Shown here: one piece after another, positions 22,110-51,108 of the stretch
How the letters are laid out: each line of letters opens with the position of its first letter
Position numbering within the stretch: the stretch's first letter is position 1
Assembly: GCA_050950765.1 (NCBI GenBank)
Contig: JBMNIF010000002.1
Coordinates: 672,001-736,000, forward strand
Direction: 5' to 3'
Source: Bdellovibrionota bacterium
GTDB taxonomy: Bacteria; Bdellovibrionota_C; UBA2361; JAAYZI01
DNA length: 64,000 nt
Position numbers and translations under genes: made by a program
Notes under the pieces: generated by a model
Database searches by the model: none
Seen by the model: the letters and a program-made list of their open reading frames with translations, nothing else
Told to the model about the DNA's origin: nothing

Positions 22110-23237
22110 TTATGATTTCTGCAAGATAAAGTCTTTACCGTGTAGCGTTGTGTTTAGCGGTTCTATAACAACCTCTCTATCTTTTGCCTCTTCAATCTCA
22201 CCTGCGATTACACCATTTAAGTTTACTGTTTTTGCAAGTTCCACAGCTTTTTCTGCACTTGCTTGATCGGGAAGATAAACAGCAAGCCCTGCACCGTAGT
22301 TAAATATCTCAACCATGCGTGAAGGTGGTGTGTTGCTGTGTTCTTCGATAAAGGAAAATACTTCTGGAACGGGTAGCATCTTGTTTATAACGTAGCGATA
22401 CGGTTTCGCCGAACGCATTAACTTTTGCCAACCGTGACCTGTAATGTTTTCAATGTTTGTAGGTTTTATTCCAGCCTTGAGGAGGGTCTGAACGTAAGGG
22501 GTATAAAGTTTTGAACCACGATTTATAGCACGCCAGTACTCTTCACCACTTGGCAAAGTTGTGCGATAACCGTGAGGCAAGCGGCTTGCTAATTCGCGCA
22601 GTGCTGTAAAACCGTTTTCATGGGGACCAGAGCTTTCGATAAAAACGATCTTGTCTCCAGCTTTAATGGCGTTGCTACTAATCGGGGAGAGTCCCGCTGG
22701 CATAAGTCCGAAAAGTGCCCCTGCGATATCGAGTTTGTCTGTAACGATTTTATTCTTAAGTTGTGGTGTTTCTCCCGAAAAATAAACGCACTTTACAAGG
22801 CGGCAGCCATCTACGAAACCATCAAGAAAGCCTTTTAAAAACTCTTCATTAAAAACTATCTCGGGTGAGCTGCTCGGTAGGTAAAGCCCGAGTAGAATAG
22901 TTTGTAGCCCTGAAGCAGCAGCATCATTGGTTAGTGCAGACATCATCTTTGTAGCGATGTTATACCAGAATTCGTATTGTTCAGATTTTGAGAGATCTTC
23001 AGGGCGGGCATCATCAGCTGTGCCCAAGCCTTCTGGAAGGAGGGTGATATAGAGATTTTCCGCGCCTGATCTGATGTATGGCGCAAGGTTTAGGGAAAAG
23101 ATATTAGCGCTAGCGCCGAGTTTCGTATCAGGCACGAAGCCGAAATCTTCAGCGAACGTTAATGTACGTCGTGCTGCTTCAATAAAAGCCTGTTTGGCGC
23201 GGTCAAGTACGTTATATTCAACTTGATCTAATGTCAT
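22110..23237 (-). CDS. Divergent PurM / AIR synthase-like protein
   Basis: EGLGT, ND, GETP, GDKIVFIESSGPHENG, NITGHGW, FNYGAG. Confidence 0.8.
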   Translation of the reverse strand: MTLDQVEYNVLDRAKQAFIEAARRTLTFAEDFGFVPDTKLGASANIFSLNLAPYIRSGAENLYITLLPEGLGTADDARPEDLSKSEQYEFWYNIATKMMSALTNDAAASGLQTILLGLYLPSSSPEIVFNEEFLKGFLDGFVDGCRLVKCVYFSGETPQLKNKIVTDKLDIAGALFGLMPAGLSPISSNAIKAGDKIVFIESSGPHENGFTALRELASRLPHGYRTTLPSGEEYWRAINRGSKLYTPYVQTLLKAGIKPTNIENITGHGWQKLMRSAKPYRYVINKMLPVPEVFSFIEEHSNTPPSRMVEIFNYGAGLAVYLPDQASAEKAVELAKTVNLNGVIAGEIEEAKDREVVIEPLNTTLHGKDFILQKS

Positions 23238-23526
23238 GCTAATACCTCACAATAATATAGTAAGAAATATAGTAAGAGCTGTTTTAAAGTAAAAATACAC
23301 TTTTGTTATTAAGTTTAAAACAGATCCTTGCTTTGATTCAAGGTTGTTAAGAACCATTAGGGGGGCTTATGGCTCAAAAATAATGTCACTTTTTGAGGCG
23401 ATGCGGGGTGTTGTATAAGTTCTGAAGGAATACCATTACAAATTCGGGGGGTAAAACGTTATAAAAACAGAGCTACCTGTATAATTTATACTTGAATCAT
23501 AGAAACGGGAGGGGTAGGTTAAGTTT

Positions 23527-43306: not shown

Positions 43307-44710
43307 ATGAATACGGCTACAAAAAAAAGTTTTCTTTTAGGGGTGTGCGCTGCTGCGCTGCTGGGGTATGTAGCATTTTTTGTCTTAAGTCCTGAACCGA
43401 TGTCAGATGAAGGATTTATATTTGCAGGAGTGGATCGGGAGGAGATTGAGAAGATCTCTATTGAAAGTGAGTTCGGTGCATATACATTTGTTAATCCATA
43501 TCCGAAAGAATTACCTGATCGTGGGACGCAAGATATGGAGCTTGATCCAGAAATCTTATTAACGTGGCAATTAGAAGATGTACCAACTGCGCGTTTAAAT
43601 ACCACCGAGTTAAACTCTCTTATTATAAATGTTTTACAAACGCGTGTACTAAATCCACTTACTCCGCAGGAAGACCTTTCGATGTATGGTTTAGATATAC
43701 CTGGTGTAAGAATAGCTGTAAAATATCTGGGAGGTAGCCACGTTATTGAGATCGGCGATAGGTCGGAATTTGTTGGGACGTATTTTGCATTACTGGACGG
43801 TAAGGCTCTCTTTATGGTGGAAGATAGGTTGATTAAGGCAGCTCTTAAACCTGTTACTGAATTTAGAGACCTTGAAATCTTACAGAAAAGAGAGGGCGAG
43901 GTACGTGAAATAAAGATCGTTAGAGATTTAACGCATCAGATCGTATTAAGACGTGATGCCGATGGTTGGAATATCTACGAGCCTGATTTTTATCCTTGTG
44001 ATCAAGGTGCTGTTCAAACGCTTTTAAAATCCCTGTTTTTATTAACAACGAAGAGTTTTTTTGAGATAGAACACAACCCACTGGATAGTGCTGGATTGGA
44101 AAACCCTGCGATTAAGTTTGTAGTGAATGATGGTCTAGGACGACGTATCTTAATGCTTTCTGATGTGCCTTCAGATACCCTTAGATACAATCTTTTTGCT
44201 TATATTGAGGGAGAGCCTTCTCTCTCTCTAGTAGATAAAGGTAGTATCGGAACATTTCCTCTTTCACTTTTTGCTTTAAGAAAAAAACGGTTTGTTTCTT
44301 TTAATCCAGAAGATATCTCTACTGTCTCCCTTGAAATGGTGGGACGAATGCCGCTTAGTCTTGAAAGATCTACTGAAGGGTGGAAGGTTAACGGCTTTGA
44401 AGGGGATACGCCCTTTATTGAAAAGTTTTTAAAAGACCTTAGTCAGATGGAAGCTGCAGAGTTCCCTGATTATGGTGAGATGGTTAGCTTTGAGCATCCC
44501 CGTTTACGCTTAGTGCTTAAGAAAAAAGACGGCAGGGAGTTGATTGTGCTTGTTGCTAAACAATTGAAAGTTCTTTCTCCGCAAGAAACGCAATATTTTG
44601 TGATGGGTGCAGATGTAAGTGAGCCTTATTTAATAGATGCGCGAACTTTTCGTGCTATTAGCCCTTCTGCTGAAATGCTTTCTGTAGTTATTCCGATTCA
44701 AGAGGAGTAG
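43307..44710 (+). CDS. DUF4340-type membrane-anchored protein
   Basis: N-terminal TM, repeated LSMYGLDxP / AGLENP motifs, FRD. Usual position after GldG. Confidence 0.8.
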   Translation: MNTATKKSFLLGVCAAALLGYVAFFVLSPEPMSDEGFIFAGVDREEIEKISIESEFGAYTFVNPYPKELPDRGTQDMELDPEILLTWQLEDVPTARLNTTELNSLIINVLQTRVLNPLTPQEDLSMYGLDIPGVRIAVKYLGGSHVIEIGDRSEFVGTYFALLDGKALFMVEDRLIKAALKPVTEFRDLEILQKREGEVREIKIVRDLTHQIVLRRDADGWNIYEPDFYPCDQGAVQTLLKSLFLLTTKSFFEIEHNPLDSAGLENPAIKFVVNDGLGRRILMLSDVPSDTLRYNLFAYIEGEPSLSLVDKGSIGTFPLSLFALRKKRFVSFNPEDISTVSLEMVGRMPLSLERSTEGWKVNGFEGDTPFIEKFLKDLSQMEAAEFPDYGEMVSFEHPRLRLVLKKKDGRELIVLVAKQLKVLSPQETQYFVMGADVSEPYLIDARTFRAISPSAEMLSVVIPIQEE

Positions 44711-47187: not shown

Positions 47188-47320
47188 TAAAGGGTTGAGG
47201 TAGTGATTTTAAGTAGTGATCTAAAAAAAGGGTAAAGGCTTGAAATACTGACTTTAAGTAGTATTTTGAGAAAGGGTAAAGGTTTGAGGTAATGACTTTA
47301 AGTAGTGATCTGGAAAAAAG
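47188..47320. repeat. 44-45-bp triplication of the gatC RBS/start region
   Basis: aagtagt at 47211, 47256 and 47300. The third copy contains the gatC ATG. Confidence 0.85.
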
Positions 47321-47582
47321 CGCACGTTCGGCACGACTAGGTGTTAATGAAGCGGAACTGAAGGCATTGAAAGAGGATGTTGCTAAGATCCTTGAATACG
47401 TTAAAGAGCTTGAAGAGTACGACCTCTCTGAAGTAGAGCCGCTTTATTATGTGCATGAACAGTGTAATGTTTTACGTGAAGATGTTGCCGCTACTCCGCT
47501 CTCGAGAGAGGATGTTTTAAAAAATGCCCCTGATACAGACACCGTTTATTTTCGTGTGCCATTAATTATGGAACAGAAGTAA
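47292..47582 (+). CDS. gatC: Asp/Glu-tRNA amidotransferase subunit C
   Basis: ARSARL, VEPL, LRED, NAP..YFRVP. Confidence 0.93.
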   Translation: MTLSSDLEKSARSARLGVNEAELKALKEDVAKILEYVKELEEYDLSEVEPLYYVHEQCNVLREDVAATPLSREDVLKNAPDTDTVYFRVPLIMEQK

Positions 47583-47587
47583 GTGCT

Positions 47588-49042
47588 ATGCTGAAACTTA
47601 CGCAGTTAACATTAAAACAGTTACGTAACGGCTTAGATAAAAGAGAGTTTTCTGCAAAAGATCTTATTCAAGTAACGCTAGCTGCGATCTCTGAGAAGAG
47701 TGATTTAAATGCGTTTATTACCGTTTGTGATGATGAGGCTTTAGCTGCAGCAGCAGAGGCTGATAGAAAAATTAAAAGGGGAGAGTCTACTCCGTTACTT
47801 GGAATTCCTGTGGGGGTAGAAGATCGGATTATGACTAAAGGTATCAGAACTACCTGCGGTAGTAAGTTACTACGATCTTTTATCCCTCCTTATGATGCTA
47901 CGGTGGTGCGGAGGCTTTTGGAGGCGGGTGCCATAATAATAGGTAAGAGTAATTTAGATGAATTCTCAATGGGGTCTTCTGGAGAAAACAGTGCTTTCGG
48001 TGTTGTAAAAAATCCGTGGAATAAAAGTTGTGTAGCGGGAGGAAGTAGTGGTGGCGCTGCAGTAGCAGCACAACTTGTGCCTGCGGTAGTAGCTACTGAT
48101 ACGGGAGGGGGGCTTAGGCAAGCGGCGGCGTTTTGTGGAGTGTACGGTTTGAGACCGACTTACGGTAGAATTAGTCGTTATGGTGTTGCAGCTTTTGCCT
48201 CGTCATTAGATCAGGTCGGTGTTTTATCAAAAAGAGTAGAAGATTTAGGAATAATAACTACCTTAATAGCGGGTTATGATAGCCGTGATGCTACATCTAT
48301 GGATGTAAAAGTTCCTGAGTTCTCACCTCCCTTTGATTGTGGTTTAGACGGCGTTACTATCGGTGTGCCGCAGGAATATTTTTCTTCTCTTGTGGAGAGT
48401 GAAGTTTTAGAAAAAGTTAAAGTTGCGATCAATCGTTTTGAAGAGTTGGGCGCAAAGGTTGTTTATTTAAAATTAGAACATACTACATCTGCTCTTTCTG
48501 CATATTACGTGATCTCTTCCGCAGAAGGTGCTTCAAACCTAAGTCGTTTTGATGGAGTGCGTTATGGGGAGCGTGTAGCGGGATCTGATTTAGAAGAGAT
48601 GTATTTGAAAACTCGTTCTGAAGGTTTTGGATCGGAAGTTAAACGGAGGATCTTATTTGGGACTTATGTTTTATCTAAAGAGTGTCGCTCGCGTTATTAT
48701 TTACAAGCGCAGAAGATGCGACGTTTAGTGTTAGATGATTTTAAAAAAGCTTTTACTCAGTGTGATCTCCTTATTACGCCTGTTACTCCGAGTGGTGTTT
48801 TTAAAATAGGTCAAAAAACATCAGATCCTTTAAGTATGTATCTGAATGATGCTTTTACTGCGCCTGTAAGTTTGGCAGGTTTACCGGCTTTAGGTATTCC
48901 GTGTGGAGTTGATAGTGCAAAGCTACCTATTGGGATGCAGTTGATCGCAGATTATTGGTGTGAAGAGTTGTTGCTTAAGGTAGCAGCTACTTATCAGAAG
49001 GTAATGGATGTGTGGGGAGGTGGAGGTAAAGGTACTAAATAA
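47588..49042 (+). CDS. gatA: Asp/Glu-tRNA amidotransferase subunit A, catalytic Lys and Ser replaced
   Basis: GKSNLDEF, GGSSGG, SNLSRFDGVRYG, EVKRRI. KD reads ED; DTGGS reads DTGGG. Confidence 0.96.
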   Translation: MLKLTQLTLKQLRNGLDKREFSAKDLIQVTLAAISEKSDLNAFITVCDDEALAAAAEADRKIKRGESTPLLGIPVGVEDRIMTKGIRTTCGSKLLRSFIPPYDATVVRRLLEAGAIIIGKSNLDEFSMGSSGENSAFGVVKNPWNKSCVAGGSSGGAAVAAQLVPAVVATDTGGGLRQAAAFCGVYGLRPTYGRISRYGVAAFASSLDQVGVLSKRVEDLGIITTLIAGYDSRDATSMDVKVPEFSPPFDCGLDGVTIGVPQEYFSSLVESEVLEKVKVAINRFEELGAKVVYLKLEHTTSALSAYYVISSAEGASNLSRFDGVRYGERVAGSDLEEMYLKTRSEGFGSEVKRRILFGTYVLSKECRSRYYLQAQKMRRLVLDDFKKAFTQCDLLITPVTPSGVFKIGQKTSDPLSMYLNDAFTAPVSLAGLPALGIPCGVDSAKLPIGMQLIADYWCEELLLKVAATYQKVMDVWGGGGKGTK

Positions 49043-49125
49043 AAAAGTATTGTTATTATGGCGGCTACTTTATTAGAAGATAGTGTGGTGCTAAAGGAGG
49101 CAAAAAATTTGGGTAGTGACTGTAA

Positions 49126-50553
49126 ATGGAATATGAAACAGTTATAGGTTTAGAGGTTCATATACAACTTTTAACGCAAAGTAAGGCTTTTAGTGCAGCT
49201 GCAGCGAGTTTTTGTATAAAACCGAATACGGAGGTTGATGAAGCTTCGTTAGGGTTAGCGGGGGCGCTCCCTGTTATAAACTCTAAGGTGTTACGTTATG
49301 CTATTATGTTGGGACTTGCTACGAAGTGTAGTATTAGAGAGGTGAGTCGTTTTGCTAGGAAACACTACTTTTATCCGGACCTCCCGAAGGGTTATCAGAT
49401 CTCGCAATTTGAGGAGCCTATCTGTGAAAATGGAGATCTTGTAATTAGATATAATGGAGAGGAGCGGGCGATCGGCATTCGTCGTATTCATATAGAGGAG
49501 GATGCTGGTAAGAATATTCATGATAAGGAGGGGGGAGTTTCACTCCTTGATTTTAATCGTGTTGGAGTACCACTCTTGGAGGTTGTTTCAGAACCTGACC
49601 TCTCAACCCCTGCAGAAGCTGCTGAATATTTAAGAACGCTTAGGCAGCTAGTGCGTTATCTTGCTATCAGTGACGGCAATATGGAGGAGGGGAGTTTACG
49701 GTGTGATGCCAATATCTCTCTTCGTCCTAAAGGTGAAAAAAAATTCGGAGTAAGAACCGAGATAAAAAACGTTAATTCATTCCGTTTTGTTGAAAAGGCT
49801 TTGGAGTATGAAGTTTTAAGGCAGAGAGGTATCCTTGAAAAGGGTGGTGTTGTAAAGCAGGAGACACGTTGGTTTGATAGTGTCACCTCTAAAACTTATC
49901 CGTTACGGAGTAAGGAGGAGGCTGCTGATTATCGTTATATGATAGACCCTGATCTACCACCATTAAAGGTTTCAGAAGAGTTTATTTCTCAAGTCCTTGC
50001 TGAATTACCACAACTGCCGCAGGAGTATCTGGAGTTATTAACTAAAGAGCACGGCTTAAGTGAGTATGATGCCGCTTTACTTACGAGTGAGAAGGGGATC
50101 GTTCGTTATTATCAAGATGTTGTGGCAAGTTGTCATAATCCGAAAGTAGCTTGTAACTGGATTACGGGAGAGCTTTTTGCGTTACTTAAGAAAAACGGTT
50201 TGGAGATAGAGGGTTCTCCTATCTCTGCAGCGCACTTAGGAGAGTTAATCTTATTAGTGGAGAGGGGGGAGATTAGTGGAAAAACGGCTAAGTTTGTTTT
50301 TGAAGAGATGGCGCAAAGTGGAGAATCTCCAGAAAGTATCGTTACAAAAAAAGGTTTGCGGCAGATCACTAACACACTTGAACTGCAAGAGATCGTGCAG
50401 GGAGTTTTAGAGGAGAATCCTCGTCAATGGGCAGAGTATAGAGCAGGTAGTGAGAAGCTTCTTACGTTTTTTATTGGACTTGTTTTGCGTGCCTGTAAAG
50501 GGCGTGCCAATCCAGAGGTGGTGAAAAAAATGTTGCAAGATTTGGCTAAATAA
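49126..50553 (+). CDS. gatB: Asp/Glu-tRNA amidotransferase subunit B
   Basis: IGLEVH, YFYPDLPKGYQISQ, HIEEDAGK, LEVVSEPD, EIKNVNS, YqeY-like tail. Confidence 0.98.
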   Translation: MEYETVIGLEVHIQLLTQSKAFSAAAASFCIKPNTEVDEASLGLAGALPVINSKVLRYAIMLGLATKCSIREVSRFARKHYFYPDLPKGYQISQFEEPICENGDLVIRYNGEERAIGIRRIHIEEDAGKNIHDKEGGVSLLDFNRVGVPLLEVVSEPDLSTPAEAAEYLRTLRQLVRYLAISDGNMEEGSLRCDANISLRPKGEKKFGVRTEIKNVNSFRFVEKALEYEVLRQRGILEKGGVVKQETRWFDSVTSKTYPLRSKEEAADYRYMIDPDLPPLKVSEEFISQVLAELPQLPQEYLELLTKEHGLSEYDAALLTSEKGIVRYYQDVVASCHNPKVACNWITGELFALLKKNGLEIEGSPISAAHLGELILLVERGEISGKTAKFVFEEMAQSGESPESIVTKKGLRQITNTLELQEIVQGVLEENPRQWAEYRAGSEKLLTFFIGLVLRACKGRANPEVVKKMLQDLAK

Positions 50554-50790: not shown

Positions 50791-51108
50791 TTGGAAGAGC
50801 CTTACACGATGCCGCTTGATGTTGTGGAAATAACCGCTGTTGATGATGAAACTTCTGTTATATGTTTAGAGTTACCACCGTCTAAGGTGGTTATCTTACA
50901 AGGGGCTTTTGAGCTATTGGAGGGGATCGGCATATTAAGGACTCTCGATACTGAGAGAGCTTTAATCTGTGTGATTACCACACCGAGTCTTGTGCGGGAG
51001 TGCGTGGATGTGCTTAATGCGTTACAAGAGGCGGTGTTATGGCGCGTTGCAGAGGTGCCGCCAGATGTAACATTTCTAGGTGATTTTGAGAAGGATTGTT
51101 ATGATTAA
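50791..51108 (+). CDS. DUF4911-like small protein
   Basis: LQGAFELLEGIGILRTLD pattern. Start uncertain. Confidence 0.65.
   Translation: MEEPYTMPLDVVEITAVDDETSVICLELPPSKVVILQGAFELLEGIGILRTLDTERALICVITTPSLVRECVDVLNALQEAVLWRVAEVPPDVTFLGDFEKDCYD

Follow-up and report, generated by a model that had tools for sequence, protein, structure and literature searches.

What does a bacterium still do with its tRNA-dependent amidotransferase GatCAB once the glutaminase site of the GatA subunit is lost? This question is raised by the gatC-gatA-gatB operon in the 64,000-nucleotide stretch analysed here (positions 672,001 to 736,000 of contig JBMNIF010000002.1; hereafter the window), which is part of contig 2 of a five-contig, 2.64-Mb Bdellovibrionota genome with a completeness of 94% and a contamination of 1.55%. 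An earlier note, made from the letters of the sequence alone, had proposed an ammonia-dependent enzyme in which a glutaminase-dead GatA is kept as a scaffold or channel beside intact GatB and GatC. We find the dead site to be real, and we somewhat favour the reading that gatCAB has been made redundant and is under relaxed but persisting selection, with the glutaminase site as the first function to be lost.

The three genes are full-length open reading frames (ORFs) on the plus strand, in the order gatC-gatA-gatB. gatC (47292..47582, 96 amino acids) scores 77.6 bits with the NCBIfam model TIGR00135 (cut-off 47.1). gatA (47588..49042, 484 amino acids), which starts five bases past gatC, scores 557.8 bits with TIGR00132 (cut-off 481.1), and gatB (49126..50553, 475 amino acids) scores 643 bits with NF004014 (cut-off 414) and 557.1 bits with TIGR00133 (cut-off 314.8). 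All three subunits are thus placed in GatCAB by curated equivalog models, each above its cut-off. GatA also matches the Pfam family PF01425 (amidase signature, fold and signature region) with 447.5 bits, and the solved structures 4wj3_A and 3h0l_B are matched by GatA and GatB with E = 7.7e-142 and E = 1.1e-159, respectively.

GatA works through a Ser-cisSer-Lys triad, in which, as a passage in PMC2330236 describes for the S. aureus enzyme, glutamine bonds covalently to Ser178. The protein was aligned to the solved GatAs 4wj3_A (P. aeruginosa), 3h0l_A (A. aeolicus) and 2df4_A (S. aureus). Where these have the amidase-signature Lys, it has Glu78 (in GIPVGVEDR; codon GAA, 47819..47821, plus strand), and where they have the nucleophile Ser, it has Gly175 (in DTGGGLRQAA; codon GGG, 48110..48112, plus strand), whose codon is two base changes away from any Ser codon. 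The remaining two triad members of S. aureus GatA are presumably Lys79 and cis-Ser154. The cis-Ser motif GGSSGG (residues 151-156; 48038..48055, plus strand) is retained and is directly followed by a deletion of two residues, seen against the three solved GatAs and against all relatives. Near Gly175 there are additional lineage-specific changes, namely LG(T/S)DTGG to VATDTGG and RQPA to RQAA. With two of the three triad residues lost and the motif of the third adjoining a deletion, the catalytic set is incomplete by the standards of GatCAB and of the amidase-signature family alike, and judged by its sequence GatA is a pseudo-amidase. The reading of the DNA and the structure alignments agree with the earlier note on both codons and on the deletion, and the ORF is indeed full length with the motifs SNLSRFDGVRYG and EVKRRI present.

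This dead site is neither a chance observation nor an assembly error. All 34 GatAs from other genomes of the same order (49-55% identical) keep the Lys and the Ser and have no deletion, and the state is therefore limited to one species-level lineage among the 35 GatAs of the order. In a leave-one-out count of columns invariant across the remaining genomes, GatA was changed at 10 of the 111 columns invariant in its 34 relatives (next genome 6, median 0). Six of these ten fall in the glutaminase signature region, and the changes outside it are P297E, S315A, G365E and A369R. A search of 5.8 billion protein clusters returned as close GatA relatives only its own cluster and one at 98% identity, with the next match at 55-56%. 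Four distinct variants of the protein from these two clusters (P0001, P0122, P0123 and P0002, from JGI, Logan, NCBI and ENA assemblies) are all full length with E78, G175 and the deletion, and the GAA codon is identical in all four. Metagenome contigs of the runs X17, X9 and X18, which come from three other studies, span one or both codons, and no difference at the codons covered is among those listed. Because the same state is found in four variants and in contigs of three independent runs, against Lys and Ser in 34/34 relatives, we exclude an assembly error; both checks had been suggested by the earlier note, and both came out in its favour.

It is hardly credible that the loss is an artefact, or that the glutaminase stays active through other residues or a second amidase. 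Nothing was found in favour of this idea, apart from the GGSSGG motif that is still present. Independent assemblies and runs agree on the codons, neither the general-base Lys nor the nucleophile Ser is left, and the deletion lies beside the cis-Ser. In addition, searches of the 94%-complete genome found no second amidase-signature protein (gatA is the sole such gene), no GlsA glutaminase and no asparaginase. The same searches yielded no second glutaminase partner, and the alternative offered in the earlier note, that ammonia is taken from another amidase, has no candidate in this genome.

Had the cell still needed the enzyme and lost only its glutaminase, GatB and GatC should have kept the pace of their relatives. 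Neither does. In the leave-one-out count, GatB was altered at 7 of the 140 columns invariant in all relatives (next genome 3, median 0) and GatC at 3 of 9. The aminoacyl-tRNA synthetases for aspartate, glutamate, asparagine and glutamine (AspRS, GluRS, AsnRS and GlnRS) were used as controls and were changed at 3/139 (maximum 8), 0/92, 4/180 and 9/239 (maximum 13) invariant columns, respectively. Terminal branches from LG+gamma trees gave the same picture. Those of GatA (0.747, 2.5x the median, rank 1 of 35), GatB (0.644, 3.1x, rank 1 of 34) and GatC (0.963, 1.85x, rank 1 of 22) are the longest of their trees, whereas AspRS (0.98x, rank 17 of 30) and GluRS (1.2x, rank 9 of 30) are unremarkable; AsnRS (1.66x, 3 of 13) and GlnRS (1.48x, 1 of 8) are somewhat long in much smaller samples. 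A relative-rate test was also carried out, in which changes unique to this genome were compared with changes unique to the genome of the sister genus (G001), with different outgroups. It gave 87 vs 43 for GatA (p = 1e-4; significant with 32/33 outgroups) and 68 vs 38 for GatB (p = 0.003; significant with 25/32 outgroups). The counts for GatC (14 vs 8), GluRS (44 vs 48), AsnRS (44 vs 37) and GlnRS (60 vs 52) were not significant. The acceleration of GatA extends beyond the signature region and covers the entire C-terminal two-thirds of the protein. It is specific to GatCAB: all three subunits evolve about twice as fast as their counterparts from the sister genus, and the control synthetases show no such rise.

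The earlier description of GatB and GatC as intact thus holds for their length and their key motifs, but not for their invariant columns, more of which are changed than in any relative. GatB contains the motifs GLEVH, YFYPD, HIEEDAGK, LEVVSEPD and EIKN. GLEVH, HIEEDAGK, LEVVSEPD and CDANIS are equal to the consensus of the relatives, which would leave the kinase/transamidase site complete. For yeast GatB, the section of PMC4027206 used here gives His, Glu and Glu as Mg ligands and Glu, Thr/Ser, Asn and Ser as ATP-binding residues; we mapped these residues to the motifs by motif likeness rather than by structural alignment. The core stretches follow the consensus of the relatives, and the tail domain is kept with conservative changes only. 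GatB has nevertheless changed inside motifs that do not vary among the 33 other GatBs of the comparison, three of these motifs being also common to three solved GatBs: YRYFPDPD became YRYMIDPD, DLNRAG became DFNRVG, FGTR became FGVR and LPG became LAG. GatC occurs in six strain variants that are 1-5 residues away from the GatC of the window. On the substrate side, the U1-A72 pair, which a passage in PMC2811023 names as the pair of tRNA(Gln) and tRNA(Asn) recognised by bacterial GatB, is kept in both tRNA-Gln genes and in the single tRNA-Asn gene. Since genomes relying on GlnRS and AsnRS have the pair as well, it is no proof of use.

Are the genes, then, simply decaying? No stop or frameshift was found in gatC, gatA or gatB in any copy seen, and the listed insertions and deletions are intergenic only. 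To put this in proportion, unconstrained substitutions were simulated and we recorded how often the frame was still open. At 5% extra amino-acid divergence, 22% of the gatA and 25% of the gatB frames remained open, at 10% the shares were 6.75% and 5%, and at 20% they were 0.5% and 0.25%. The relative-rate test puts the excess changes at about 9% for GatA and about 6% for GatB, which by interpolation gives a chance of roughly 0.01-0.02 that both genes would still be open under no constraint, insertions and deletions not counted. The distribution of the changes points in the same direction. When the excess was taken as the differences of this genome from the consensus minus those of G001, it was +0.05 (GatA) and +0.03 (GatB) in invariant columns and +0.24 to +0.27 (GatA) and +0.13 to +0.16 (GatB) in moderately conserved ones. 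Invariant columns are thus altered about five times less than moderately conserved columns, whereas neutral decay should strike all classes equally, and we conclude that selection on gatCAB is relaxed, yet not absent.

Variation among strains could be read from contigs of four runs aligned at 88% likeness, for which 40 of 77 differences were listed, so that the counts are small. Among these 40, there were 4 synonymous and 4 non-synonymous differences in gatA, 0 and 2 in gatB, and 21 and 1 in the neighbouring pbp1A. The ratio of non-synonymous to synonymous differences is 6:4 for gatA and gatB together against 1:21 for pbp1A (Fisher p = 0.0014), which corresponds to a rough ratio of non-synonymous to synonymous polymorphism (pN/pS) of 0.44 against 0.014. 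At the protein level, 9 sites vary in the 96 residues of GatC and 16 in the 484 of GatA, and the variable GatA sites V77, G85, N145, S147, C148 and Q162 adjoin the former active site. In the single strain that could be compared across genes, 4/484 residues differ in GatA, 1/475 in GatB and 1/818 in PBP1A. DNA of a GatA from a close strain was not obtained from a metagenome scan, which gave only GatAs that were 35-51% identical, or from a scan of genome collections (28-50% only). A second GatB search in a large protein collection added just one near-identical variant.

Several of these observations would also be expected if the operon were a functionless relic with no role left, now neutral and without a stop or frameshift only by chance. 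All three subunits are accelerated, GatB is changed inside otherwise invariant motifs, the amino-acid polymorphism of GatC and GatA is high, and 6:4 cannot be distinguished from a neutral 3:1 (binomial p = 0.28). The cell would have full redundancy on paper through the direct routes described below, and the word "vestigial" has been proposed in PMC4206432, in the passage taken up at the end of this text. We nevertheless consider the relic unlikely: the excess substitutions shun invariant columns about five-fold, all three frames are open in all copies seen, which for gatA and gatB has the low chance given above, and the rough pN/pS of 0.3-0.44 lies below 1. The earlier note had named simple decay as the outcome that would count against it. 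The rough pN/pS and the rate tests do support relaxed selection on gatCAB, but with open frames and spared invariant residues this is not simple decay.

What could have relaxed the selection is suggested by the other enzymes of the genome. GlnRS is present (753 bits, cut-off 425.8), as is AsnRS (609 bits, cut-off 342.6), which is encoded on the same contig as gatCAB. An ammonia-dependent asparagine synthetase, AsnA, is encoded on another contig outside the window (C3, positions 22438-23379; 384 bits, cut-off 292.8), and AsnB was not found in this genome (best match 78.6 bits, cut-off 267.1). We take these genes to be the organism's own, because the contigs share a G+C content of 0.400-0.415 and trees group AsnRS and GluRS with their counterparts from the sister genus. 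Judged by its gene content, the cell could do without GatCAB in making free asparagine and both amide aminoacyl-tRNAs. GatCAB would be a physiological need if GlnRS, AsnRS or an asparagine synthetase were absent, and all three score above their cut-offs. Since GlnRS, AsnRS and AsnA are present and gatCAB is relaxed, the cell need not rely on GatCAB for Gln-tRNA or Asn-tRNA. The earlier note had itself set its proposal against the case of a genome with both GlnRS and AsnRS and a gatCAB under relaxed selection, and both parts of that case were found; the presence of glnS and asnS argues against an essential ammonia-dependent enzyme, and there is no second gatA.

To see how this gene set arose, 41 genomes of the order were compared, the present one included. 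GatA and GatB were found in 38/41, AsnRS in 37/41, GlnRS in 9/41 and AsnB-family proteins over the cut-off in 25/41, the latter not including this genome. AsnA was found in this genome only (1/41), which suggests an acquisition by transfer. All three genomes without GatA and GatB possess GlnRS. The sister-genus genome G001 has GlnRS, AsnRS and a canonical GatCAB but no AsnA, and its AsnB-like match is below the cut-off. AsnB was also considered as a predictor of the state of GatA in the relatives. It fails, since every GatA seen in the 25 genomes with the AsnB family is canonical. As a side observation, the three genomes G008, G026 and G037 (family f8 of the order; 1.5-1.9 Mb) have GlnRS but no GatA, GatB, AsnA or AsnB-family match; AsnRS was found in two of them, and they may be asparagine auxotrophs.

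GatCAB also depends on a non-discriminating AspRS or GluRS, which supplies its mischarged substrate. One column of the anticodon-binding domain of AspRS is His (in R-D-H-G-G) in 29/33 AspRS sequences of the order, including that of G001, and Leu in four, namely those of the present genome, G002, G008 and G026, the last two being among the three genomes that lack GatCAB. According to Bernard and colleagues (2006), this His reportedly helps AspRS to recognise tRNA(Asn). The AspRS loop of this genome is also two residues shorter than that of its His-type relatives. It aligns without a gap to the T. thermophilus "tRNA(Asp) ligase" 6hhv, which has Leu. In 4rmf and 5w25, the mycobacterial "tRNA(Asp/Asn) ligases", the loop is longer and the column is His. 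This AspRS, we infer, has shifted towards discrimination. In the AspRS tree, the enzyme of G008 is sister to it with a support of 0.874. The specificity column examined in GluRS was uninformative, as it is Arg in 30/30 genomes with or without GlnRS; it is equivalent to Arg358 of T. thermophilus GluRS, whose role was reportedly worked out by Sekine and colleagues in 2001.

Together, these findings can be arranged into a probable course of events. The ancestral state was likely that of the sister genus, in which GlnRS and AsnRS stand beside a canonical GatCAB and the AspRS column is His, as is typical of non-discriminating enzymes. The lineage would then have gained the ammonia-dependent AsnA, replacing tRNA-dependent asparagine synthesis, and AspRS would have taken on discriminating features (Leu in place of His, and two residues fewer in the anticodon-binding loop), so that charging of tRNA(Asn) may have stopped or nearly so. 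The demand for transamidation would have dropped, GatA would have lost its Lys and its nucleophile Ser, and all three subunits would have changed about twice as fast. What is left could be a GatB-based transamidase that runs at low flux as a back-up or for clean-up, draws on free ammonia and has GatA and GatC as its scaffold. Because the glutaminase site is dead, any transamidation that remains must use free ammonia.

A number of observations weigh against this preferred reading of redundancy. A gene set that looks redundant on paper need not cost GatA its site: G001, G005, G016, G030 and G039 combine GlnRS and AsnRS, yet all keep a canonical GatA, and all of them but G001 also carry AsnB-family genes over the cut-off. 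Glu-tRNA(Gln) could still be made by GluRS, which would give GatCAB a real job. The case for a discriminating AspRS is built from one column and a loop length. The polymorphism counts are small, coming as they do from 40 of 77 differences, and in the strain that could be compared across genes the ORF at 43307-44710 varies more than GatA (7/467 vs 4/484). The genome is 94% complete, and no RNA run is among those listed as containing the stretch. The ORF just mentioned encodes 467 amino acids, lies just upstream of pbp1A and belongs to no NCBIfam family; two strain variants each differ from it at 7 residues, the maximum of the neighbourhood.

A variant of the ammonia idea that we regard as possible, if clearly less probable than redundancy, is that the complex is a working amidotransferase on free ammonia alone, which after a recent switch gives a digester bacterium with ample ammonium a second, or clean-up, way of making Asn-tRNA, Gln-tRNA or both that needs no glutamine and exists alongside AsnRS and GlnRS. 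If this were true, the switch would have been caught early, with a canonical sister genus at hand for direct comparison.

The stronger form of the idea holds that this is an adapted ammonia-dependent amidotransferase on which the cell relies, with GatA as scaffold and tunnel in a habitat where ammonium is abundant. The habitat does fit. Parts of the stretch were found in 20 runs from 14 studies, with at least half of its words in 18 of the runs. The sources are anaerobic digesters, bioreactors, landfill and wastewater, habitats that are ammonium-rich in kind, the setting in which the earlier note had thought its proposal plausible. The genome uses the ammonia-dependent AsnA and not AsnB, and it retains the ligand motifs and the tail domain of GatB as well as U1-A72 in the tRNAs. 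The chemistry is possible too: according to a passage in PMC4027206, a heterotrimeric amidotransferase is active with 20 mM NH4Cl replacing glutamine, which backs the earlier statement that such enzymes can use free ammonium in vitro. We still judge reliance on such an enzyme to be quite unlikely. GlnRS, AsnRS and AsnA would make up complete direct routes and AspRS looks discriminating, the acceleration of GatB and GatC is not predicted for an enzyme that is still needed, and the state is limited to one species-level lineage among the 35 GatAs of the order. Nor is there a genome-wide retreat from glutamine. The possibility that ammonia-rich life has stripped glutaminase sites throughout the genome was rejected, since CarA, GuaA and PyrG keep the nucleophile Cys motif (3/3 class-I amidotransferases) and glutamine synthetase is present. 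Redundancy thus accounts for the dead site better than an adaptation to ammonia does, because direct routes exist and all three subunits are relaxed. Of the proposal in the earlier note, the reliance of the cell on the enzyme falls away, given GlnRS, AsnRS, AsnA and a relaxed gatCAB, while two parts of it stand: the operon is not simply decaying, and any transamidation would need free ammonia.

Acceleration could also reflect a change of function. In that case the complex would be a repurposed pseudoenzyme, with a GatA that still binds glutamine and that, together with GatB and GatC, serves another role, for instance in regulation or in the binding or sequestration of tRNA. Two residues, the Arg of EVKRRI and the Asp of LND, appear unchanged although the catalytic ones are gone (this was read from their absence among the deviations, and the mapping of the motifs is our own), and the part of PMC4027206 cited here has this Arg and this Asp binding the carboxyl and amino groups of the substrate in solved GatAs. 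The frames are also retained despite the acceleration. However, we see no positive evidence of a new partner or context, as the order of the operon and the neighbours of gatCAB match those in relatives, and the changes, carried by one lineage only, have the look of a loss at scattered sites and not of a newly conserved motif. We therefore hold repurposing to be very unlikely.

Some features of the operon itself remain to be described. Upstream of gatC there is a weak promoter-like sequence, TTGAAA-16-TATTTT (47240..47267, plus strand; from a consensus scan and inspection of the sequence), followed by a Shine-Dalgarno-like GAGG before the ATG at 47292. Promoter-like sites were not enriched over shuffled sequences (4 seen, 6.8 expected). 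A direct repeat gggtaaagg(c/t)ttga occurs at 47230 and 47274, within the upstream region 47225-47290, and the word gtagtga precedes both gatC and gatB (second region 49100-49125); the repeat and the word may be regulatory or repeat elements. The spacer between gatA and gatB varies in structure among strains. In contigs of the runs X15 and X9, a stretch of 74 bases (49032..49105, plus strand), which comprises the final 11 bases of gatA and the spacer, is present as a tandem duplicate, as seen from a joint that goes back 74 bases. This duplication breaks no frame; its first copy is divergent, with 16 other letters over the aligned piece 48690/48719-49105. Between gatB and a ppiD-like gene there is an ORF at 50791-51108 (105 amino acids, no NCBIfam family) that overlaps the predicted start of the latter.

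Many bacteria keep GatCAB beside GlnRS and AsnRS, and the present lineage amounts to a dated natural experiment on whether GatCAB then still acts: the sister genus is canonical, while this genome has gained AsnA, altered its AspRS, lost the glutaminase site, doubled the rates and kept the genes. It thereby gives a probable order of loss when the indirect pathway is replaced, with the glutaminase going before the kinase/transamidase, and the enzymes of the two genera form a ready before-and-after pair for finding out how far GatCAB runs on ammonia alone.

Compared with GatCAB as a known tRNA-dependent amidotransferase, the operon has the same three genes in the order gatC-gatA-gatB, all above the NCBIfam cut-offs, and conserves the catalytic stretches and the tail domain of GatB. 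It differs in the loss of two of the three triad residues, the two-residue deletion next to the third, the changes in invariant GatB motifs and an enzyme that is unneeded on paper. By sequence family it would be classed as a GatCAB, and by its glutaminase triad as an incomplete one. We found no report of a natural GatCAB without the GatA triad in the open-access full-text literature. In metagenome data, a contig (L151:2453-5623) carries a gatC-gatA-gatB operon whose GatA (TIGR00132, 526.8 bits) has Gln at the Lys column and Gly at the Ser column, with an adjoining GatB of very strong score (685 bits). It appears to be an independent dead-GatA operon, which shares with ours the Gly at the nucleophile column and the strong GatB, although its GatA is just 44% identical. 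Three other metagenome GatA-like genes, L165, L168 and L169 (38%, 35% and 45% identical), have A/A, D/T and D/S at the Lys/Ser columns.

In Bdellovibrio bacteriovorus, experiments described in the part of PMC4206432 used here showed that a single non-discriminating AspRS and GatCAB make asparagine on the tRNA, and the same source lists GatCAB beside GlnRS and AsnRS for tRNA-dependent asparagine synthesis in B. bacteriovorus, Legionella, Deinococcus and Thermus. The present genome resembles this arrangement in having GlnRS, AsnRS, GatCAB and a single bacterial-type AspRS, and the sister genus fits the type. Its AsnA, Leu-type AspRS and dead GatA set it apart, and with these the Bdellovibrio-type reason for keeping GatCAB would no longer apply. 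A passage in PMC2330236 states that the AsnA-bearing genomes known in 2008 all use AsnRS, not GatCAB, for Asn-tRNA. In the survey figures quoted from PMC4206432, the class with AsnRS, GlnRS, GatCAB and only AsnA comprises 2/547 genera. The retention of GatCAB in such bacteria is called "maybe vestigial" there, an idea put forward for deltaproteobacteria with asparagine synthetase(s), AsnRS and GlnRS, and the genome described here has the same gene set. In the cited passages this idea is drawn from the presence of genes, with no mention of a loss of catalytic residues, whereas here the loss is visible in the sequence and the acceleration has been measured.

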